Assembly: GCA_949373075.1 (NCBI GenBank) | Contig: CASIBX010000005.1 | Location: 5,873-69,872, forward strand | Direction: 5' to 3' | Source of the DNA: Candidatus Poseidoniaceae archaeon | GTDB lineage: Archaea > Thermoplasmatota > Poseidoniia > Poseidoniales > Poseidoniaceae | Length of the DNA: 64,000 bases | Shown: positions 52,387-64,000 of the stretch, one piece after another | Layout: each line of letters starts with the position of its first letter | Position numbering within the stretch: the first letter of the stretch is position 1 | Program-made: the position numbers and the translations under genes | The notes under the pieces: generated by a model | Seen by the model: the letters and a program-made list of their open reading frames with translations, nothing else | What the model was told of the DNA's origin: nothing | Database searches by the model: none

Positions 52387-53766
52387 TCAATCTTCCATAA
52401 CGCAAATATTGACCGCTTCACTGAAGAAACCGACGGACCACATACCACCTTCCCTACCAACACCGCTATCTTTCACTCCACCAAAGGGTACGCGCAAGTC
52501 GCGGTGCAACCAAGTGTTGACCCAAACCATTCCAGAATCTATTTTTTCGGCTATCACACGGCCTTTATTCTTCGACCAAACGCTGCCGGCTAATCCGTAC
52601 TGAGTTGAATTTGCCATTTGTATTGCTTCATCATCAGAATCAAACTGGTGAATTGTGACTACTGGTCCAAATATCTCTTCAGTTGCTGTGCGTGATTTAT
52701 GTGAAAGGCCACCTATCACAGTTGGCTCTATCCAGGAGCCTGGTTTATCTGGAATATTTCCTCCAGCCAATATGTGGCCTCCTTCTTGTTTTGCTAATTG
52801 AACATAAGACATGACTTTGTCTCGATGGCTATCATTAATCACAGGACCTATTTCGAAACTCTGAAGTTGTTCGAGGTACTTTGACATGAAGTCCTCATAG
52901 ATAGAGGAATGAACCAGAACTCTAGAACCACACAAACAAATTTGTCCAGAGTTAAGGAATGACGCTCTTAGCACCCCTGGAACTGTAATCTCTAGGTCTG
53001 CATCTTCCATAATTATGGATGCATTCTTACCGCCTAATTCAAGACTTAATTTCTTGAACATAGGAGCTGCCGTGGCTGCAACTATTTTCCCTGTGGCTGT
53101 GCCACCTGTAAACGAGATTGCCTTGATTTTAGGATGCTCAACTATTGCTTGTCCAATCTCTGGCCCGTAACCATGTACAATGTTTAGCACCCCATCTGGC
53201 AACCCTATATCAGTGCAAACTTTGCCCAAAAAGTGAGCTGTGATTGGAGTTATTTCGCTAGGTTTAGCAATAATGGTATTCCCCATCAACAGTGCAGGAG
53301 CAACTTTCCAAGATAGAAGGTATAGTGGGAGGTTCCAAGGTGAAATTAAGCCGACTATTCCGATTGGTTTTCTCATGACATAATTTGTTGCATCTGGCAT
53401 CTCGAAGGTTTCCGATTTCATATTCCTACCAAATTCAGCAAAGAATCTGAAATTATTTACAGACCGGTCTGCGTCTACATTGAGAGCTACATGATGCGGT
53501 TTACCAGTATCCAATGATTCCAGTCTGGCAAGTTCGTCTATTTGTGATTCCAAAGAGTCTGCAATTTTGTCTAGCCAGTCACAACGTTGCAGTAAACTTA
53601 GTCCACTCCATTGCGATTGTGCTTTTTCAGCAGCAGTTACCGCTCCTTCAACATTCTTAGTACGAGGAATCGTTGCAATTACAGTACCATCTAAGGGTGA
53701 GATATCATCAAAGAATTCAGTGGGGGAAACAAACTCTCCCCCAATCAAATTCTCTATTCGAATCAT
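52387..53766 (-). CDS. NAD(P)-dependent aldehyde dehydrogenase (2-amino/2-hydroxymuconic semialdehyde dehydrogenase-like)
   Basis: ALDH superfamily motifs: SPWNLPLYL, FTGGTATG, LELGGKNA (catalytic Glu), GQICLCGSR (catalytic Cys) and EEIFGPV. Specificity is inferred only from the neighbouring amn-like genes. Confidence 0.8.
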   Translation of the reverse strand: MIRIENLIGGEFVSPTEFFDDISPLDGTVIATIPRTKNVEGAVTAAEKAQSQWSGLSLLQRCDWLDKIADSLESQIDELARLESLDTGKPHHVALNVDADRSVNNFRFFAEFGRNMKSETFEMPDATNYVMRKPIGIVGLISPWNLPLYLLSWKVAPALLMGNTIIAKPSEITPITAHFLGKVCTDIGLPDGVLNIVHGYGPEIGQAIVEHPKIKAISFTGGTATGKIVAATAAPMFKKLSLELGGKNASIIMEDADLEITVPGVLRASFLNSGQICLCGSRVLVHSSIYEDFMSKYLEQLQSFEIGPVINDSHRDKVMSYVQLAKQEGGHILAGGNIPDKPGSWIEPTVIGGLSHKSRTATEEIFGPVVTIHQFDSDDEAIQMANSTQYGLAGSVWSKNKGRVIAEKIDSGMVWVNTWLHRDLRVPFGGVKDSGVGREGGMWSVGFFSEAVNICVMED

Positions 53767-54878
53767 ACGTCGACCTCATAATGCCAGCGGTCTTGATCAG
53801 GGTCCCATTCATCCCAAGTGGGAATTGTTTCTAGTACATCATGTAGATTGTCAGGAACGATTCCTGAGACGATGAATGCTTTTTGTCTGTGAAGCGGGTA
53901 AGGATTTCTCAATTCAATTCCGAGGCAACCCAATATTGCTCTGGCAACATACCATGTTGCTTGAGAATTCCATCCATGCGCAATTTTCACCACGATTCCT
54001 AACCCCTTAGGGTAATCAGGATGCTCAATCGCCATTCCCAGTAAACCATCTGCGCCTTCTTTAGCGATTACCTTACCATTGCCAATTTTTAGAATTGTAG
54101 AATCTAGCCTGTTAAATCCGCCAACTAAATCGGGATGGCGACACATTGCTTCCCAAATCCAATCCTCATCTTTGTCCCTAACCAGTCCAGCGTAAATTTT
54201 AGCCAACTCTGCAACTGTGTTTGAGACGGTAGGAAGACCACAACCATCTTTTGCAATCCTTAGTGGATTCCAATCATCGCCCAAATACTTCCTTATCTGC
54301 TCCATATAGGCATGAAATACCTCGTGATTAGGCAAGGTATAGCCGGCTCTGCCCCATCCTTTTGCACGGCAACCTGCTAGAATTGCAGCATGTTCACCAC
54401 TACAGGTATGATACCATCTTCTTGGACGTCTTACTTGGCGTCCAAATTGAATAAGAGGAACATCTACTGGAGTGAGCATAAGGGGCCATTCCGCTTCATA
54501 AAGTAAAGATTGAGCGGCAGCTACATGTTCAGTATCGCCATTATGGCTAGCGACAGCAATTGCTTTTTGTTCCCAAGTGTGGTCTTTTAATTCCTCAGTA
54601 AAGGCCTTGAGCATGAAGGGCTTCATCATTGAACGACCATAACACAGTACATTGCCTCCAAATGAATGTACTACTTCGTCACCGTGGCACCATGCAACAG
54701 CACCATGTATTGTGGTTTCTGAAACACCATTGCGACGGTAATCGACCAACGGCTCCCATTCAACATCTCTTCCGGTGGGAATGCCTTCTACATCCTCCCC
54801 TAATGGTGAATCGGGATAGATTGCAGACCCTGGTTTGCCCGGTGCTACTGCTGAATTAGGGTCGTGTCTTAATCCCAT
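53763..54878 (-). CDS. Asparaginase II (PF06089-type) family protein
   Basis: RSMMKPFMLKAF, ASHNGDTEHV, HTCSGEHAAILAGC and DGCGLPT match the family's S.xKP / SHxGE..H / CSGKHA / DGCG series. The start overlaps the ALDH stop by 4 nt. Confidence 0.65.
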   Translation of the reverse strand: MGLRHDPNSAVAPGKPGSAIYPDSPLGEDVEGIPTGRDVEWEPLVDYRRNGVSETTIHGAVAWCHGDEVVHSFGGNVLCYGRSMMKPFMLKAFTEELKDHTWEQKAIAVASHNGDTEHVAAAQSLLYEAEWPLMLTPVDVPLIQFGRQVRRPRRWYHTCSGEHAAILAGCRAKGWGRAGYTLPNHEVFHAYMEQIRKYLGDDWNPLRIAKDGCGLPTVSNTVAELAKIYAGLVRDKDEDWIWEAMCRHPDLVGGFNRLDSTILKIGNGKVIAKEGADGLLGMAIEHPDYPKGLGIVVKIAHGWNSQATWYVARAILGCLGIELRNPYPLHRQKAFIVSGIVPDNLHDVLETIPTWDEWDPDQDRWHYEVDV

Positions 54879-54882
54879 TTAA

Positions 54883-56109
54883 TCACTCCAACAAAGGTAC
54901 TACTTCGTGCCACCATGCTTCCATATTACGGATAACTCGGTCGCTATCGTGATTAAAGAAATCAAACCAACACATTAGACGGTCTTCAGGATGAAAACGC
55001 TCTTTGACCTGAGATGCTACCTCGCTGGCATTCCCAATTAGTGCATTATCTGCTGCCTTCTCGACCTTAGATGGGTCCAGAGTGCCTTCGAGTGCTTTCC
55101 AATACTCTCCTAATGCTTGCCTAGCCTCTTCGTGAGCAGCAAGAGATTGCTCCTCAGGAGAAAGTCCCTTCTCGGAATTAAGGAATACAAATGTAGTCCG
55201 AGGCATATCCCTACGTTGCCATTCGCCCCCATCCGAATGAAACATTTCGCTCATTCTTTGGTGGGTCGAATCAATAACTTCGGGAGAGGTTATAGAGAGA
55301 TTGAAAACTTTGACTGGCATGAATTTGTTGACAAACTCTTGGGCCTTAGGATCGTGAGTTCCCGCAACCAATTCTAATTGGGATCTAGGCCATTGTTTAG
55401 GAACTATTGAAATCTCTTCGAAATTATATCTCCTTTCAACCTCTATACTTCCCACAGTCGATTCTCCGGATGTTTCCTCTACTGCAAGTTGGACTTTGTC
55501 CCAATCTTCGTCACTACGGAAATTATCTCGAGTCAATATGGTTTCTCTTATGTCATCAGAATGAATCGTATCACCGCGTAGTAGTCGCAAGAATATCTCG
55601 CTTGCTTCCATGAAAATCTGACCGCGCAAAGCTGGCCATGCTGCTTCTTCGATTGGATTACGGGGGACGATTCCATATGGACGTGCCATGAATTCAAATC
55701 TGCCAGCACTAAAACCAACATGCAATTTCCTTTTGGAATCCATGTGGGAAAGGAATTGTACGGTGTTAGCAACTCTTTCGGCTTGAGCGATTGGACCACC
55801 ACTAGCCAGTATACTGACTACTGCCGAGCCAACATCAATTCTTTTTGTCCTTCTAAAAGATTCCATTGCTAATTGACAAAAGTCAGTACATAAACCAACT
55901 TCGCCTTGCCAATGAGGAACCACTGGCTTGGAGTTATCCTGTTGTGTTTGGGTCGATAAATGAGCCTGAGCTATCCATGCAACTCCGAACCCTAAACGGT
56001 CTGCTGCATCTAATTGTGCGTAGTAATTAGAGAACATTTCGGACTCGCTAGGTGTGAATCCATTATGGTCTGGAGTCTGTGATATCGAGAAGAATATGTC
56101 GTACTCCAT
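54883..56109 (-). CDS. Luciferase-like (LLM class) flavin-dependent oxidoreductase, with an internal insertion
   Basis: DAADRLGFGVAWIAQAHL and RIDVGSAVVSILASGGPIAQAERVANTVQFLS...HVGFSAGR resemble the LLM N-terminal barrel. The ATG at 56109 (MEYDIFFSI) is preferred over the track start at 56154. Confidence 0.5.
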   Translation of the reverse strand: MEYDIFFSISQTPDHNGFTPSESEMFSNYYAQLDAADRLGFGVAWIAQAHLSTQTQQDNSKPVVPHWQGEVGLCTDFCQLAMESFRRTKRIDVGSAVVSILASGGPIAQAERVANTVQFLSHMDSKRKLHVGFSAGRFEFMARPYGIVPRNPIEEAAWPALRGQIFMEASEIFLRLLRGDTIHSDDIRETILTRDNFRSDEDWDKVQLAVEETSGESTVGSIEVERRYNFEEISIVPKQWPRSQLELVAGTHDPKAQEFVNKFMPVKVFNLSITSPEVIDSTHQRMSEMFHSDGGEWQRRDMPRTTFVFLNSEKGLSPEEQSLAAHEEARQALGEYWKALEGTLDPSKVEKAADNALIGNASEVASQVKERFHPEDRLMCWFDFFNHDSDRVIRNMEAWWHEVVPLLE

Positions 56110-56153
56110 GTAATCCCTCTCCCTAGGGAGAGGGGCTCTATGTATCAATATCA

Positions 56154-56951
56154 CTATTCGGCTGTTAGTTTAGAGACACGTTCTCTAACTGGCTCAGGAA
56201 CTACTTCTCCTGCTTCCATGAAAACGGTCATGATGTCTGAAAGTTGAACCATTGCCTCATCGGGCTGATTCGAAATTTCGGCTAAATCTGCTAATCCCCA
56301 TCGAGCAACTAATATCCCGGAGAGGTCATTAATTTCAGTTGCTATCGTAAGAGACTGAATGAGTAATTCTTGAGATTGTTCCAACTCACCTAGCGTAGAA
56401 TGGGAGTGCGCTAAATCAGCAAGTGCTTCCATTTTCTCAAAACGCTCTGATTCGGGAATGAGTTCCAATCTCTTTCGAAGATGGAGTTGACTCTTTTCAA
56501 ACTCGCCATCTTCTTTTGCAATATGGGCAATTAATGCATGACCGTAAATCATGCCCTCTAAGTCCTCGGCTTGTTCACGAAGTCGCATTGAGCGGTTTGC
56601 AAAAACACCTGCATCTTCGCTGCCCAATGAGATCAAGGACACATGGTGAAAAATACCTGCCGCTAATCCAGGTAGTCCTTCATTTTCAGAAACCACACCT
56701 AGACCTATCAATTCATCCTTACTCGCACCATTGTGCTTCAGTAGTTCGAATTGGCACCAACCTTGGTCTTCAGGATTCAATGAAACCTTAGCAGCATGGT
56801 CTAGTAACCTAGCGACAAGCGCATCTCTTCCCAAGTCGCGTGCTAATTCAACAAGATGTAATGCTAGACTTGTGTTTACCGATTCCAAACCTTCGCCTTC
56901 GGCGAACATCTCTAGAACTTCTTCTGCTTGTGTTGGACTCATTTCTGGCAA
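56154..56951 (-). CDS. Hypothetical all-helical TPR-like repeat protein
   Basis: 265 aa with recurring ~34-aa helical-hairpin periodicity (for example ALADLAHSHSTLGELEQSQELLIQSLTIATEINDLSG). No catalytic motif. Confidence 0.4.
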   Translation of the reverse strand: MPEMSPTQAEEVLEMFAEGEGLESVNTSLALHLVELARDLGRDALVARLLDHAAKVSLNPEDQGWCQFELLKHNGASKDELIGLGVVSENEGLPGLAAGIFHHVSLISLGSEDAGVFANRSMRLREQAEDLEGMIYGHALIAHIAKEDGEFEKSQLHLRKRLELIPESERFEKMEALADLAHSHSTLGELEQSQELLIQSLTIATEINDLSGILVARWGLADLAEISNQPDEAMVQLSDIMTVFMEAGEVVPEPVRERVSKLTAE

Positions 56952-56960
56952 GTTCTCACC

Positions 56961-57746
56961 TCAGATTGAACGCATTCGTCCGCCGTCGACAGCTAAGGAG
57001 ACACCACGAATACCGCCTGCTATGGGCATGCAAAGATATGCGATTGCAGCACCGGTTTCCAATGGGTCGATCAATCGGCCAATTGGAACCTGAGTCATCC
57101 ACCCAGAATGTACATCTTCCACACTCTTTCCTGTCTTTTCATTGATGGAAGCCGCCAAGGAACCTAGACGGTCAGTATCTGTAAACCCAGGAAGGACATT
57201 GTTGATGGTAATGCAAGATGGTAATTCGCTTGAAAGCGTTTTCGACCAAGATGCCATTGCTCCACGAAGTGTATTGGAAAGTCCAATGTTTGGAATTGGT
57301 TCTCTAACTGAAGTAGAGATGACATTGACTATCCTACCCATTCCTGCGTCTTCCATCATCGGAGCGATTCCTCTGACTAAAGTGTGGGCGGCGTGAAGAT
57401 GACGCTTGAAAGGTGCTTCAAAGTCTTCGATGTCATTATCCAGAAGTGGACCTCCTGGCGGACCTGCTGCATTATTGATTAAGATGTGACATTCGCCAAT
57501 TGAAGAAATGAATTCGGCAATTGCTTCTTGGTTTTCCAAATCGAGACTAACTGCTGTATGTCCTGAGCCTGATAGTTTGGAAATTAAGTGCTCAGGATTC
57601 CTACTAACTGCAGTTATTTTTGCTCCTGCTTTTGCCAGCATTTGGGCAGTTGCAGCACCGATTCCTTTGGATGCCCCACAAACAATTGCATGTTTGCCAA
57701 CTAAGGCCGTAGTTGAGAAGGGGTAGTCGTCTCCTAGCCAGTCCAT
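56961..57746 (-). CDS. Short-chain dehydrogenase/reductase family protein, atypical active site
   Basis: GKHAIVCGASKGIGAATA (TGxxxGxG-like), NNAAG, PGFTDT. The usual YxxxK position reads SNTLRGAMASWSK, with no Tyr, as in the BKR-like SDR subgroup. The start is taken at M25 to avoid overlapping the upstream gene. Confidence 0.75.
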   Translation of the reverse strand: MDWLGDDYPFSTTALVGKHAIVCGASKGIGAATAQMLAKAGAKITAVSRNPEHLISKLSGSGHTAVSLDLENQEAIAEFISSIGECHILINNAAGPPGGPLLDNDIEDFEAPFKRHLHAAHTLVRGIAPMMEDAGMGRIVNVISTSVREPIPNIGLSNTLRGAMASWSKTLSSELPSCITINNVLPGFTDTDRLGSLAASINEKTGKSVEDVHSGWMTQVPIGRLIDPLETGAAIAYLCMPIAGGIRGVSLAVDGGRMRSI

Positions 57747-57778
57747 GCCAATGCCAAGGGGCGCACAGTATTGAACCT

Positions 57779-58369
57779 TCACAGCCAGTCTCGAATAGTT
57801 TCTACTTGCGCTAACCAATCATCACTGGCTACATCGATGATTGAAAAATGGTCGCCAGGCAACCATAACTTCTGAATTTCTACTCCCTTAGCATCCATGG
57901 CTCTAGCGTATGATTCTGATTGTGTCCAAGGGACTTCATCATCCGCTTTACCATGCATTACTAGGACTGCTGTTCGAGGGGGATTATCTACTGGATTAAT
58001 CCGCCTCCAAACCTCCTCATTACCTTCTGGCTTACAACCGACCCATCGGCGCACTGCATCTCCATCATCAGATAATTTAGCATGATCTGCTGCAACTAAA
58101 TCTGTGATCGGAGCTTGAGCGATAGTTAGCCAAGGTTTTCGATCTGCAACTGCAGCCATCATCAAAGCAAGATGACCACCAGCAGAATGACCCATTATCA
58201 TTGAGCGAACAATGTCGATTCCGGGTAACAAAGCAAGTTGGCCCCACGCACGCATGACGTCAGATAAAGTATCAACCCAAACGCCTTCATCACCTTCTGA
58301 CCATCCTTTGAATTCGATATTCCATGCCGCTATTCCTTGCTCAGCAAGGTCTTCAGCAATCGGTGCCAT
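57779..58369 (-). pseudogene. Alpha/beta hydrolase (esterase/arylformamidase-like), 5'-truncated at the compositional breakpoint
   Basis: GHSAGGHLA nucleophile elbow and C-terminal HGKADDEVP / GDHF. Upstream in frame the sequence reads ...FGFFLNNGGFWKTEYTLEL, the oxyanion-hole HGG region. There is no ATG or GTG there, and the frame hits a stop at 58469-58471, inside AT-rich foreign-looking DNA. Confidence 0.55.
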
Positions 58370-58446
58370 CAATTCCAGAGTATATTCAGTCTTCCAAAAA
58401 CCACCATTGTTGAGGAAAAATCCAAAACTCCTAGAAATCGATATTA

Positions 58447-59360
58447 TGAATTCAGGATCAGCTTCTGACTATAGAATTCTAGATTTTAGAAAACCTATGA
58501 TTCGTTTTTGCAGTCAAGAAAGAAAACTCCATCAACAAGTTCAAGACTTTCCTGTCTTTAATGGAAAATATTCAACAACATGCTACTTAGATGAAACATT
58601 GCATGCCCTAGATGACATGTATAACAAAAGAAAACTAAATCCGATTAAGTATCTACGCTCTCTTCAAACTGTGTTTATGCACAGGCCTTACAGAAAAATG
58701 CCAGAAACTGGTCTTGCCATCGCTTATCTCTTTGCGCTCTCCACGGGTGATTCCGATGATCGAGCTGAACTCACATCATATTGTTATGAAGCAGGAATTG
58801 ATCCCGTTAAAGTCATAAATGAAATGCAAGAATACTCACCAGATATAAAAAATCTAGCCAATCCAACAGATCTTAATAATGAAGCCTTCCCAATGACAAT
58901 GGCCATATTTAAAATATTCAGAGCCTCAAGACATTATCGTAGGGAAGTTTTAGATAAGATGGCTCTAGGAAGTGATACGATGTTAGATCTTGGTAATCTT
59001 TATACAGCTGCTTTACCAGCATGGATAGCAGCTGGTATAGAACAAGCATTAATAGAGAATATAGATCTCACTGGTACTGAAATTCTCACTCTTGGATATG
59101 GCAGTGGCGATGCCGCAGAAGTAATACCTTTTAAAGTCTGTAAAGGATGGAAAGACGCTGCAAAAAACATTCAATTTTCTAAAGCTATGTCATTCACAAT
59201 AGATATTAATAAAGAGCAATATATTGATCTTCATAACGGGAAGTCCCTAGAAAGATTAAATTATGAATTAAAGAACGAATTTATTATTGAGCGTGTAGGC
59301 AATTCAGCACAAAAAAATTATCAGGATATAGGTATCGAGTATCATCGATATATTAAATAA
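58447..59360 (+). pseudogene. mvaS: HMG-CoA synthase (bacterial MvaS-type), C-terminal ~300 aa only; the catalytic-Cys N-terminal third is missing
   Basis: KNPKLLEIDI..SDYRILDFRKP compares with NPSILAL..DVYDFWRP. FPVFNGKYSTTCYLDE compares with YPLVDGALSKDAYI. Also present are FMHRPYRKM, GNLYTAALP and LGYGSGDAAE. The upstream part of the track ORF (58212-58446) is antisense to the hydrolase and has no MvaS similarity. Confidence 0.6.
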
Positions 59361-59371
59361 TTGAATAATTT

Positions 59372-59941
59372 TTATGGGCTTGTCTTTAATAGCTCACTAT
59401 GATCTGAATTAATTCGCTCCCACTCCATAATGAACCATGGAGTATAAATACCCTCTCTCTTTAACAAGGTCGTTATATCTTTTGAATTTAAAAACTTAAA
59501 GTCTGCAATTTCATTCAGATTAATTTCTATCTTTTGGTCTATTTTGCCAATAAAAACATGACATAGTTCATTTTCAGAACCAACATCTTTATATTTAGCT
59601 GTATATGAAAATTTATAAATATATTCTAAATCAACAGCTTCAATACCCAATTCATCAAGCAATCTTCTATTCACAGCTTCAGTTATATTTTCACCCTCTC
59701 GTGGATGACTGCAACAACTGTTTGACCAAAATAAAGGCCATAATTTCTTTAATGCACTTCTTTGCTGTATCAGAAGTTCTCCTTTTGCATTGAATAAAAA
59801 AACCGAAAAAGCACGATGTAATCTTCCTTCACCTTGATGACAATCAATCTTACTCATTGTACCAATTTCATTATCAAGTGAATCAACGAGTATTAATCTC
59901 TCGCTATCAAACGAAACTATATTTTTATTTAATTTATGCAT
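59372..59941 (-). CDS. idi: Isopentenyl-diphosphate delta-isomerase, type 1 (Nudix)
   Basis: HRAFSVFLFNAKGELLIQQRSALKKLWPLFWSNSCCSHPREGE...AVNRRLLDELGI matches the IDI-1 core, including the catalytic Cys/Glu region. Confidence 0.85.
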   Translation of the reverse strand: MHKLNKNIVSFDSERLILVDSLDNEIGTMSKIDCHQGEGRLHRAFSVFLFNAKGELLIQQRSALKKLWPLFWSNSCCSHPREGENITEAVNRRLLDELGIEAVDLEYIYKFSYTAKYKDVGSENELCHVFIGKIDQKIEINLNEIADFKFLNSKDITTLLKREGIYTPWFIMEWERINSDHSELLKTSP

Positions 59942-59953
59942 TTATTTAGGCCA

Positions 59954-62197
59954 TCAAGATGAATTTATTGAAATAATTTTATAACCTGCTAACTCAAAAG
60001 TCTTTGCTATTTCTTCTTCTTTTCCTGGACAGAGGATAACGATTGATCCTCCACCACCGGAACCAGTGATCTTTGCCCCCAGCGCACCCTCTGATCTGGC
60101 TAAATTTACCATTTTCTCAAGCTCTGAATTTGATACTCCTATGGCGTTAAGCAACCCATGTGCCACATTCATTAATATTCCAAGCTCATCAAAATTACGA
60201 TCTTTTATTGCAGCTAAACCCTTCGTTGACAACTTTCCAAGCTGCATAAATATATCTGTATAAATATTTTTATTTTTTTCATACCTTGAACAAACTTCAT
60301 TGATTACATCGATAGTTTTTGATGATTTATTGCTTACTGCAATAATTATAGGAAGAGATTTAATATCATCAAAATCAATATTTTTAACGCCATCTTTTCT
60401 ATTATATAAAATTGGTTGAGCATAGCAGGCAACCGTATTATCAATACCAGAGGGATTTCCATGAGACAATGTTTCACACTCATACGCAATATCATTAATC
60501 TCCTTATCCGTTGATGTTAGATTAAATAAATCAATTAATCCTCTTATTAAAGCGACAGCATATGAAGCTGATGCTCCTAATCCCATGGAGAGAGGTATGC
60601 GAGAAAAGATTTTGATCTTATATTTCCCTCGATCTATTTTTAGTAAATCGGATATCATTTCTATCATTCGAACCAGATATGTATATTCATCAGAATTATT
60701 ATCAAAAAAACTATTTGAGTTTCCATTAATAATAAATTGATAATCTCCTTCTATTTCTTGCAGCTCAACTTTAACGGCCTTTTCAATAGGAATGGCTATT
60801 GCATAATGATCATAAACAACAGCATGTTCTCCAAATAATATTATTTTTCCTGCAGAAAAACCAAATCCTATTGGTCCAGTATCATCCTGAGAATCATCAG
60901 GCATAGTCTCTTTTAGCTTTATCGAGTCAAAAATCTCTTGAGCCTTCCATGCTTTAATTTCATTACTTAAAATTAAAGCATCCAAAACTTTAGAAAAGTA
61001 TCTCTCAGGAACATTAATACTCATCACCACACTTTTTGCGTGTAATTTCATATGGCCTTTTTGAATACCATAAGTTGTTAAAGCCCTTAATGCAGCTAAA
61101 TTTTGTGCTAGACCTACGGAGCCCATAATTATTGCTAACTCATTTGAATTTTTGGCAGCTGTTATCTTTAATCCTAACTGAGCGCCTGGATTTGCCTTCA
61201 AAGAACTGCCAACAATACCAACTTTAATCGGCATTTTTAGCTCGCCAACCAGATCACCATCAGCATCAACAAACCACTTTGTCAGTGATCTATATCTACC
61301 ATCTTGACAAGCATAAGCATGGGCCGCTGCTTCAATTGAGCGCCAATCGTTCCCAGTAGCAATCGCAACAGCATCAATTCCATTCATAATGCCTTTGTTA
61401 TGTGTTGTTGCACGATATGGATCAGAATCAGCAAAATCAGTCGCATTTATTATGCCATCACGAACCTCTGGGCCATCATAATCGTCTTTAGTCAAATATT
61501 GGTGAGGTATTTTCACTTTAATATTAATCAGAGATCGATCAGTCAAATTGGACAATATTTTCAAACCAACTCTGCAACTGGTTAATTCTGATAAATCATC
61601 TGCCAGAGACTCACAAATTGTATTTACCAAATTAGCTCCCATTGCATCTTTAGTGTCTATCAACAGATGTAATACAACTATTTGCTTACTTTTTTGCTTT
61701 ACTATTCGAATCTCAATATCTTTAACACCACCTCTTCTTTTAATTAAATTTGGTTGAGATAAATTTGCTGAATGAATTAATATTTTTTTGTTCTGCTCAA
61801 GAATGCCAACCGTATCTGCTATATTTTTAACATCAAGAAGCTGGATTTGCCCAATCAATAGAGACTCATGAATGGATGCAATAAATCCTCCTGACTTTCT
61901 AATAATCTTGGCAGCACTACTAACACCAGCAACTATGGATGGCTCTTCTACTACCATTGGCACTAAATAATCTTGATCATTAATTAAAAAATTAGTAGCT
62001 ATTGAGAGGGGTAACCCAAAAACACCTATTACATTTTCACTCATATTATCAGCAGTATGAGTCAGAATTACTTGATTTCCTGATTTGAGCAGTTGAGATT
62101 CCTCAGAAGTTAATATATCAAGATTAGATAGCACCTCAATCCTTTCGGCAATCGTCATTTTATAAAAGCCAGTTATATCTGATTTATTCATGATCAA
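59954..62197 (-). CDS. Fusion protein: class II HMG-CoA reductase (N-terminal, ~430 aa) + mevalonate kinase (C-terminal, ~300 aa)
   Basis: HMGR-II motifs: VEEPSIVAGVSSAAK, DAMGANLVNT, THNKGIMNGIDAVAIATGNDWR. MVK/GHMP motifs: GKIILFGEHAVVY, PLSMGLGASASYAVAL, KITGSGGGGSIVIL. It is a single uninterrupted 747-aa ORF. Confidence 0.85.
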   Translation of the reverse strand: MIMNKSDITGFYKMTIAERIEVLSNLDILTSEESQLLKSGNQVILTHTADNMSENVIGVFGLPLSIATNFLINDQDYLVPMVVEEPSIVAGVSSAAKIIRKSGGFIASIHESLLIGQIQLLDVKNIADTVGILEQNKKILIHSANLSQPNLIKRRGGVKDIEIRIVKQKSKQIVVLHLLIDTKDAMGANLVNTICESLADDLSELTSCRVGLKILSNLTDRSLINIKVKIPHQYLTKDDYDGPEVRDGIINATDFADSDPYRATTHNKGIMNGIDAVAIATGNDWRSIEAAAHAYACQDGRYRSLTKWFVDADGDLVGELKMPIKVGIVGSSLKANPGAQLGLKITAAKNSNELAIIMGSVGLAQNLAALRALTTYGIQKGHMKLHAKSVVMSINVPERYFSKVLDALILSNEIKAWKAQEIFDSIKLKETMPDDSQDDTGPIGFGFSAGKIILFGEHAVVYDHYAIAIPIEKAVKVELQEIEGDYQFIINGNSNSFFDNNSDEYTYLVRMIEMISDLLKIDRGKYKIKIFSRIPLSMGLGASASYAVALIRGLIDLFNLTSTDKEINDIAYECETLSHGNPSGIDNTVACYAQPILYNRKDGVKNIDFDDIKSLPIIIAVSNKSSKTIDVINEVCSRYEKNKNIYTDIFMQLGKLSTKGLAAIKDRNFDELGILMNVAHGLLNAIGVSNSELEKMVNLARSEGALGAKITGSGGGGSIVILCPGKEEEIAKTFELAGYKIISINSS

Positions 62198-63195
62198 ACC
62201 TCACGATTGAAGCCTACTTTATCTAACCCTAGGCACAATGGTACAAAACCCTTTTGTTTTGCTAATTCTTTAAACTCATTCAATAATTTATCAGATGAAG
62301 AAATACAAATACCAATGTCACCACCTGCACCACAGGGTTTGTAGACTAAATCGCTATTTTTCTTTGCTAAATCTAACAGCATATTATGCTTATTCCCAAA
62401 GATATTTAAATCATATTCAATACTAAATTCCATCAAAGCATTGGTATATTCATCGAGACAACTCAAGAATAGTTTGCTTGTGCCCCGCTCCCATATTGAA
62501 GCAAATTGTAAGGCTTTTTTGTTTAGATTTGAAAAACTTTGTTTTGAGAATGTTGTAATTTTAGACAATTGCCTAGGAGTACTAACCGGTATGCCACTCC
62601 AAAAAATTTTAAATTTTAAATTATCTGGAAAGTTCAAAGAAGTTGTAACTTTATCTTTACTACGAAAGTATTTAATAATTCCACCTTCTATTGAGGTGGC
62701 AATATCCACACCACTGCCATTAGCATCTTGAAACTCTTGGTGAGTTTTTAATGCCAACTCTTTTACTCCAATTGATAATTTGAAAGTGTCAATAAAAACA
62801 CTAGCCATAGAAACCGTGAGTGCTGCGCTAGAACCTATACCATATTTAAGCCCAGTAATTTCATCATAAAAACCACTGGTATCTAAGACGAATTGATAAA
62901 AAGCAGTAGGAACAATATTTATTTGTCGCCAAAAACACCCAAAAAATAATCTAATAGAATTATCATCCAATTCAGCATCTAACCATTCTATTTTTCCCTT
63001 GTCATTTACAATAAATGATAGTTCTCTATCTTTAAAACCCATAGTTTTTAAGATATGCCTTTTCTGACCATGCTCCGTGATAGAAGCAATTGCTCGTTTA
63101 TTAATAGCCATTGAAATTGCAGGAGCTTCAGCTAATACTGCAAATTCACCGGCAATAATAATTTTACCTGGCGCGCTTGCCTTAAAAGTTTTCAT
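62194..63195 (-). CDS. mvaK2: Phosphomevalonate kinase (GHMP type)
   Basis: SAPGKIIIAGEFAVL (compare PGKLFIAGEYAVV), YGIGSSAALTVS and YKPCGAGGGDIGI. There is a 4-nt ATGA overlap with both flanking genes. Confidence 0.7.
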   Translation of the reverse strand: MKTFKASAPGKIIIAGEFAVLAEAPAISMAINKRAIASITEHGQKRHILKTMGFKDRELSFIVNDKGKIEWLDAELDDNSIRLFFGCFWRQINIVPTAFYQFVLDTSGFYDEITGLKYGIGSSAALTVSMASVFIDTFKLSIGVKELALKTHQEFQDANGSGVDIATSIEGGIIKYFRSKDKVTTSLNFPDNLKFKIFWSGIPVSTPRQLSKITTFSKQSFSNLNKKALQFASIWERGTSKLFLSCLDEYTNALMEFSIEYDLNIFGNKHNMLLDLAKKNSDLVYKPCGAGGDIGICISSSDKLLNEFKELAKQKGFVPLCLGLDKVGFNREV

Positions 63196-64000
63196 AATTG
63201 GGTACTAGAAGTAGGAGCTTCCCCCAGACTTGATGTCATTATAGATTCTACACCATCTATTTCTGCCAATCTTTTTATGATTCTTGTTTCATTCTCAGGC
63301 AGACATACCGCTTTTATTTGTGGTCCAGCATCCATTGTAAAAAAAACAGGTTCACCACTTTGCTGTAAATCTCGAATAGCATGCATACAGTTAAGAGTTG
63401 CAGCATTCCAATAGACAACAGAGGGCTTAGTAGTCCACATAACAGAATGCATTTTCAAGCAATTATGCTCAGAAACCGCCGCTAATTTTGCAAAATCTTT
63501 CTCTTTTACAGCTAATCTTGCTTCATTCATATCTGGAGATTGATTTTCAATCCAAGCTGAATAAAAAGGAGAAGAATGCGAACTTAAATTCATTGCCTTT
63601 GATGATGAAATACTTTTTTTATTTTTATCAGTGATAGCAATCACCACACTCAATGGCCATCGTGTAACATTTGATAATTGTTTTATTTTAATAGTATTCG
63701 ATATATTTTTAAGTTCTACGATACCACCCAATAAAGATCTTGCTGCGGAACCTGAAATATTTCCTGCTTGCGAAGCGAATAGCTGAGTGTCTGATTTTTT
63801 ATTCATCACTGCATTTGCAGCAACAACTAAGGCAGAAAATGAAGAGGAGGAGGATGCCAGTCCAGCTGAAATAGGAAAATTACATTCACTAATGATCTTA
63901 GCGAATTTTCGATTTTTACCCATAACAAGATCCAAACATTGGCTAACACGTGATAAATTTGACTCATTATTGACACCATTTATGATTAATTCATCACATT
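63192..64000 (-). CDS. mvaD: Diphosphomevalonate decarboxylase (partial, N-terminus beyond right edge)
   Basis: FPISAGLASSSSSFSALVVA, HSSPFYSAW and FFTMDAGPQIKAV. The frame stays open upstream of the track's M at 63935 (…DELIINGVNNESNLSRVSQCLDLV) to the window end. Confidence 0.8.
   Translation of the reverse strand, partial: CDELIINGVNNESNLSRVSQCLDLVMGKNRKFAKIISECNFPISAGLASSSSSFSALVVAANAVMNKKSDTQLFASQAGNISGSAARSLLGGIVELKNISNTIKIKQLSNVTRWPLSVVIAITDKNKKSISSSKAMNLSSHSSPFYSAWIENQSPDMNEARLAVKEKDFAKLAAVSEHNCLKMHSVMWTTKPSVVYWNAATLNCMHAIRDLQQSGEPVFFTMDAGPQIKAVCLPENETRIIKRLAEIDGVESIMTSSLGEAPTSSTQL

Follow-up and report, generated by a model that had tools for sequence, protein, structure and literature searches.

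The subject of this analysis is a cluster of mevalonate pathway genes located at the right-hand end of a 64,000-nucleotide stretch of DNA, referred to here as the window. It derives from a metagenome-assembled genome (MAG) of a Candidatus Poseidoniaceae archaeon (GCA_949373075.1, designated G000) and corresponds to positions 5873-69872 of contig C5 (CASIBX010000005.1), which is 70157 nt in length. A first-pass annotation of the window had described the cluster, with its single open reading frame (ORF) joining HMG-CoA reductase (HMGR) to mevalonate kinase (MVK), as lying next to an archaeal genome. We are highly confident that this adjacency is an assembly chimera, with C5 being archaeal to window position 58407 and bacterial from 58408 onwards. 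The joint itself is chimeric, the DNA beyond it is of bacterial origin, the frame of the fused protein is intact, and the fusion is widely distributed. The features that meet at the joint are listed below, where C26 is another contig of G000 and L005 is a bacterial contig described further on.

52536-58407, no strand: native Poseidoniaceae (marine group II archaeon) DNA, with 58407 as the last archaeal base and 97.6-99.95% identity to five independent contigs.
57779-58407, minus strand: α/β hydrolase (prolyl-oligopeptidase/BD-FAE type; Pfam PF00326/PF20434) with its 5' end missing.
58407/58408, no strand: chimeric joint, placed by a three-way alignment of C26, C5, and L005, by a drop in guanine-plus-cytosine (GC) content, and by loose contig ends.

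As can be seen in the three-way alignment, the archaeal part closes with ...CCACCAT and the bacterial part opens with TGTTGAGG. The GC content along the window is 0.42-0.46 and then 0.34-0.36 from ∼58400, with the change from 0.46 to 0.33 occurring inside 200 nt at the joint. The low-GC tail constitutes the final 5.9 kb of C5, such that C5 terminates within foreign sequence. Against a set of 253 windows of equal size from the MAG, this tail has a GC content of 0.339 versus 0.442 ± 0.015 (z = -6.9) and a tetranucleotide distance that lies above the maximum of the set (z = 8.6), and its composition resembles that of the remainder of L005. At the break two genes abut head to head, namely the hydrolase on the minus strand and mvaS, encoding HMG-CoA synthase, on the plus strand, and each lacks its 5' part. 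Note that the A-run beside the joint (58417-58421) contains five A in C5 but four in all of the bacterial contigs, and thus the mvaS remnant is out of frame with its own first few codons. The extra A is consistent with the low-quality end of a chimeric read.

The true continuation of the archaeal side is found on C26. Positions 56751-58407 of the window (C5:62623-64279) are 100% identical to C26:58622-56966 over 1657 nt. Beyond the break C26 reads ...CCACCATGGATTAGCATG..., which gives an intact hydrolase followed by AspRS and MetK. The truncated hydrolase of C5 is without ∼34 N-terminal residues of 243, including the histidine of the HGGFW motif, and upstream of the break its frame runs into nonsense. 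The intact copy on C26 reads ...VMLIHGGFWKTEY. Five public contigs (L097-L101, consisting of two Tara scaffolds, one other ENA assembly, and two Logan contigs) leave the window at exactly 58407, and past that position they encode the intact hydrolase, AspRS, and MetK in the same manner as C26. The gene order AspRS, full-length hydrolase, SDR was observed in 7/7 congeneric genomes, and the cluster mates of these archaeal-side proteins carry the names Candidatus Poseidoniaceae or Euryarchaeota. The overlap also makes C5 and C26 redundant within the MAG; as C26 is the true continuation, C5 should be relieved of its tail and joined to C26.

The continuation of the bacterial side was reached by an exact look-up of the 745-aa HMGR-MVK protein, which led to a 14.8-kb ENA contig, L005 (GC 0.35), and to a Logan contig, L006. 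The segment C5:64279-70157 is 99.86% identical to the former and 99.92% identical to the latter, with the end of C5 aligning to L005:499. Both contigs carry a full 493-aa mvaS with the PF01154 and PF08540 domains. Past the intact mvaS, L005 encodes a DUF4399 protein, a FadE-type acyl-CoA dehydrogenase, malate dehydrogenase (Mdh), GshA, and a class IV aminotransferase (IlvE-like). NCBI entries under the name Woeseiaceae bacterium, from contigs as long as 167-311 kb, fall into the 90%-identity clusters of mvaS and of FadE. The tail stems from a low-GC marine gammaproteobacterium that co-occurs with the archaeon and is labelled Woeseiaceae by NCBI. The cluster had been called bacterial in content as well as in composition at the outset, and this was borne out: it is an outlier in GC and tetranucleotides, and its best matches and gene order are those of bacteria and not of Poseidoniales.

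Support across the joint was examined via the Logan contigs of four public runs from two studies. No contig spanning the joint was present among them. Rather, one contig reaches 58407 and then follows C26, and another starts at 58417 and follows L005. In run X5 the depths on the two sides of the joint are ∼6 versus 16-24, a difference of about 3-fold. A look-up of runs with the 66-nt joint alone listed none, a result that carries no weight as it covered two sampled words. The claim that the cluster lies next to an archaeal genome is not upheld: the joint is supported by C5 alone and is contradicted by C26, by five archaeal contigs, by the bacterial contig, and by the four runs.

The related archaea do not carry the fusion. 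It was encountered in 0/24 congeneric and 0/16 same-order archaeal genomes, all 40 of which encode a stand-alone HMGR (∼440 aa, ∼43% identity) and a stand-alone MVK. When the rest of the archaeal genome was checked for archaeal-type genes, G000 was found to possess its own stand-alone HMGR on C6, an MVK on C3, and an archaeal isopentenyl phosphate kinase (IPK), scoring above cut-off, on C14. The type-2 isopentenyl-diphosphate isomerase model (TIGR02151) had no match in G000, an absence that means little for a MAG that is only ∼60% complete. The tail shows none of the marks of a native segment: its composition is not host-like, it is missing from relatives, and it is not continuous with the archaeal DNA in independent assemblies. 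With respect to a genomic island, no host DNA lies on its far side, and no contig of the four runs extends over its one junction.

The mevalonate genes encoded in the tail, of which the one at the window edge is cut, are as follows.

About 58408-59360, plus strand: mvaS, 3' part, matching PF08540 only and corresponding to residues ∼177-493 of 493 (317 aa).
59372-59941, minus strand: type-1 isopentenyl-diphosphate isomerase (IDI; Nudix), 189 aa, TIGR02150 161.3 bits (cut-off 105.8) and NF002995 174.9 (cut-off 127).
59954-62197, minus strand: HMGR(class II)-MVK fusion, with TIGR00532 and TIGR00549 above their cut-offs, 747 aa from TTG or 745 aa from ATG at 62191.
62194-63195, minus strand: GHMP-family kinase, probable phosphomevalonate kinase (PMK), 333 aa, TIGR01220 76.6 bits, below the cut-off of 165.7.
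63192-64000, minus strand: diphosphomevalonate decarboxylase (MVD), cut by the window edge, TIGR01240 191.5 bits (cut-off 171.35), the last 268 of 320 residues.

This gene content is the one originally listed, the ORFs matching and the family models agreeing apart from the sub-threshold score for PMK. The mvaS remnant is without its first ∼176 codons, which specify the catalytic N-terminal domain. The start of the MVD gene lies within the 285 nt of C5 outside of the window, and a 320-aa gene is called at L005:630-1592. Of the two ATGA start/stop overlaps that had been reported between these genes, that of MVD and PMK at 63192-63195 is present. The letters at 62194-62197 are TTGA, however, and the database gene call for the fusion begins at the ATG at 62191, 2 nt past the PMK stop. 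The assignment of the cluster to the classical PMK plus MVD route holds, with PMK as its probable member, in that MVD, even as a truncated product, scores above the cut-off of its own model and far under those of the archaeal-variant decarboxylases (81 versus 475 for NF040704 and 41 versus 560 for NF040847). The sole match of the 333-aa kinase in the PDB is Lin0012 from Listeria innocua (3k17, E 6e-14), and its operon position together with this weak similarity makes it a probable phosphomevalonate kinase.

The fused protein consists of a complete class II HMGR and a complete GHMP-type MVK, joined head to tail. The HMGR portion is delineated by residues ∼3-426 and the MVK portion by residues ∼444-746, with a linker of ∼18 residues (∼427-443) between them. 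The HMGR half scores 367.5 bits against TIGR00532 (class II, "degradative"; cut-off 259.95), and its residues 6-426 cover the full-length class II structures 6dio, 5wpj, and 1qax in alignment. The motifs EEPSIVAG, HNKGIMNG, GNDWR, and GHMKLHA are all legible. The MVK half scores 238.1 bits against TIGR00549 (cut-off 163.05), and residues 444-746 match structures 8teb and 2hfs end to end, with GKIILFGEHAVV, GLGASAS, PSGIDN, and ITGSGGGG in place. We take the catalytic roles of the HMGR motifs to be those known from the Pseudomonas mevalonii enzyme, and those of the kinase motifs to be the ones known from GHMP kinases. No family match to a thiolase domain was found in the fusion, the partner domains of HMGR being GHMP_kinases_N and GHMP_kinases_C. 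The frame is free of stops, the identical 745-aa protein occurs in two independent assemblies, and the domain junction is covered by gapless contigs from four public runs belonging to several studies, which confirms the initial description of HMGR and MVK as one protein. Its nearest named relative is protein P0004 from a Woeseiaceae MAG, with 72% identity.

The first-pass annotation was aware of no described HMGR-MVK fusion. Indeed, no paper describing a natural one was found; with most subscription journals outside of the literature searched, this speaks only weakly for its absence. IspDF fusions are mentioned in a 2026 review on the diversity of bacterial isoprenoid pathways, and an HMGR-MVK fusion is not (PMC13001223). 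The fusion is nevertheless not rare. At 90% identity, the same three-domain architecture is present in no fewer than 119 clusters (all of the best 120, one of which is a partial sequence), and ∼20 representatives at 50% identity match the fusion end to end. In 40/46 species-representative loci, which span several phyla from Gammaproteobacteria to Actinomycetota, a single frame extends over both domains. These loci include Woeseiaceae, Rhodanobacteraceae, Pseudomonadales, Salinisphaera, Rhodospirillaceae, Myxococcales, Calditrichaceae, Balneolaceae, Acidobacteria, Nakamurella, and a cultured Cryobacterium. The only name given to the fusion proteins in the databases is "hydroxymethylglutaryl-CoA reductase, degradative." The protein encoded on C5 thus joins a large and under-annotated family and, at the sequence level, is not surprising. 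In five Bacillaceae (L058, L064, L068, L070, and L073; Virgibacillus, Oceanobacillus, and Paucisalibacillus) and in Archangium (L052), HMGR and MVK adjoin in the same order as separate frames, possibly representing a pre-fusion or a post-fission state. The order MVD-PMK-[HMGR-MVK]-IDI is kept in most of the related loci, and mvaS is often nearby on the opposite strand.

Other architectures were observed in the course of the searches. HMGR-MVK-IDI(Nudix) triple fusions, in which the same gene order is contained in one polypeptide, are represented by P0192 (928 aa) and P0194 (952 aa). Among the other fusions with an N-terminally placed class II HMGR (P0231, 1453 aa; P0251, 1162 aa; P0240, 1253 aa; P0225, 932 aa), the partners are polyprenyl synthase with squalene/phytoene synthase, SQS_PSY with an epimerase-type reductase, and a terpene-cyclase-like domain. 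HMGR seems to be a frequent fusion partner in isoprenoid pathways. Architectures with HMGR at the C-terminus also occur among the 50%-identity representatives.

In the bacterium the genes form a conserved operon, MVD-PMK-[HMGR-MVK]-IDI1, accompanied by a divergent mvaS. From the enzyme activities expected of these families, the operon would supply isopentenyl diphosphate and dimethylallyl diphosphate from acetoacetyl-CoA by the classical mevalonate route. One polypeptide would catalyze both the conversion of HMG-CoA to mevalonate and that of mevalonate to mevalonate-5-phosphate, which are steps 3 and 4 of the pathway, and a possible benefit of the fusion may be a fixed stoichiometry or the channelling of mevalonate.

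The other HMGR-MVK proteins of ∼745 aa, from Woeseiaceae, Rhodanobacteraceae, Pseudomonadales, Calditrichaceae, Cryobacterium, and others, share architecture, length, and operon with the one studied here and exhibit no essential difference from it. Classical bacterial mevalonate operons are exemplified by mvaK1-mvaD-mvaK2 together with mvaS/mvaA in Gram-positive cocci and by mvaA-idi-hcs-mvk-pmk-mvd in Paracoccus zeaxanthinifaciens. The likeness to these lies in the six enzyme families, HMGS, class II HMGR, GHMP MVK, a probable GHMP PMK, MVD, and IDI, of which HMGR, MVK, MVD, and IDI exceed the cut-offs of their family models, whereas in the present cluster HMGR and MVK form one polypeptide and the PMK is divergent, with a score below cut-off. 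The IDI is of type 1 (Nudix) here and of type 2 in the Gram-positive cocci. MvaE of Enterococcus faecalis, an acetoacetyl-CoA thiolase-HMGR, is likewise a class II HMGR fused to an enzyme of the same pathway. In the protein described here, by contrast, HMGR is N-terminal, its partner is the next enzyme, MVK, and there is no thiolase.

Several other observations were made on the surrounding DNA. The Poseidoniaceae S-adenosylmethionine synthetase encoded beside AspRS (L096:4115-5344 on C26; L097:4741-5970) matches the bacterial/eukaryotic MetK Pfam domains S-AdoMet_synt_N/M/C and not an archaeal-type family. C26 also encodes (L096:720-4091) a 1123-aa predicted surface protein in which GGNNT repeats extend over a long stretch and which has poly-Glu plus a Cys-rich tail at its C-terminus. 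ARAGORN identified a single tRNA in the whole window and nothing of relevance to the joint. The possibility that the joint marks a mobile element or prophage was rejected, given that neither integrase or transposase ORFs nor repeats are present there.

The explanation of the joint as an assembly chimera has to be weighed against three others. A genuine and recent event, in which bacterial DNA entered an archaeal subpopulation by insertion or illegitimate recombination, would have destroyed the 5' end of the hydrolase and left behind a non-functional fragment of mvaS. Such an event would account for the presence of the joint in the deposited contig, and the archaeon and the bacterium do co-occur in the same samples. 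It is difficult to reconcile, however, with a foreign piece that occupies the end of a contig and has archaeal DNA on its near side only, with an uninterrupted allele in the same MAG (C26), with the unequal depths on the two sides, or with a joint that lacks mobile-element genes and repeats and is absent from every contig of the four runs and from all five independent archaeal contigs. Moreover, the tail and the bacterial contigs are 99.9% identical, without signs of amelioration, and the fusion occurs in none of the 40 archaeal relatives. We regard such an insertion as very unlikely. Even less credence, amounting to almost none, is given to the cluster being a vertically inherited native feature of the archaeal genus. 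No point in its favor was found, and it is opposed by the absence of the cluster from the 24 congeneric and 16 same-order genomes, by a composition that is an extreme outlier, and by AspRS being the native neighbor of the hydrolase in all genomes checked. The criterion set in the first-pass annotation, best hits and gene order shared with Poseidoniales, gave the opposite outcome, both being bacterial. The third alternative concerns the fusion rather than the joint, namely that its single frame arose as a sequencing or assembly artefact through a lost stop or a frameshift between adjacent genes. The separate adjoining genes of Bacillaceae and Archangium, in the same order, lend it some plausibility. 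Yet the same 745-aa protein was obtained in two independent assemblies, the contigs across the junction in four runs are gapless, the continuous frame recurs in 40 species-representative genomes of several phyla, and the three-domain architecture is common to no fewer than 119 clusters at 90% identity; an artefact of this type is extremely improbable.

There are points that weigh against the interpretation offered here, both of the joint and of the enzymes. The sequence shared at the joint amounts to at most 1-2 nt, so that there is almost no microhomology. Logan contigs drop rare variants, and a rare real junction could escape them. The best model for the 333-aa kinase is the Gram-positive PMK (TIGR01220), with a score under the curated cut-off, and no enzymology of any HMGR-MVK fusion was found in the literature. 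In its abrupt composition switch at a contig end, its truncation of both genes, its unequal depths, and the other continuations of its two sides, C5 resembles known chimeric MAG contigs. It differs from them in having virtually no repeat shared at the joint, which suggests a chimeric read or a scaffolding error rather than a repeat-mediated graph error.

With the adjacency regarded as an assembly chimera, the archaeon and the mevalonate cluster are linked only by a chimeric contig end, and there is thus no transfer event to explain and no donor to seek. Taken at face value, the window would imply that a marine group II archaeon had gained a bacterial mevalonate pathway, a reading that would distort studies of gene transfer and of how archaeal lipids and isoprenoids evolved. 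The MAG is a species representative, and one of its contigs, archaeal in all other parts, ends in 5.9 kb of bacterial DNA; the reported contamination of the MAG is 0.54, and marker-gene estimates miss the tail. As for the fusion, we suggest tentatively, at somewhat less than even confidence, that it represents a widespread and biochemically uncharacterized bifunctional enzyme of bacterial mevalonate operons, extended in some lineages to HMGR-MVK-IDI. Common and under-annotated as it is, the fusion makes a sensible target for enzymology or for the engineering of pathways. If the suggestion is true, the fused enzyme could link the rate-limiting reduction directly with the first phosphorylation, via channelling or stoichiometric co-regulation.

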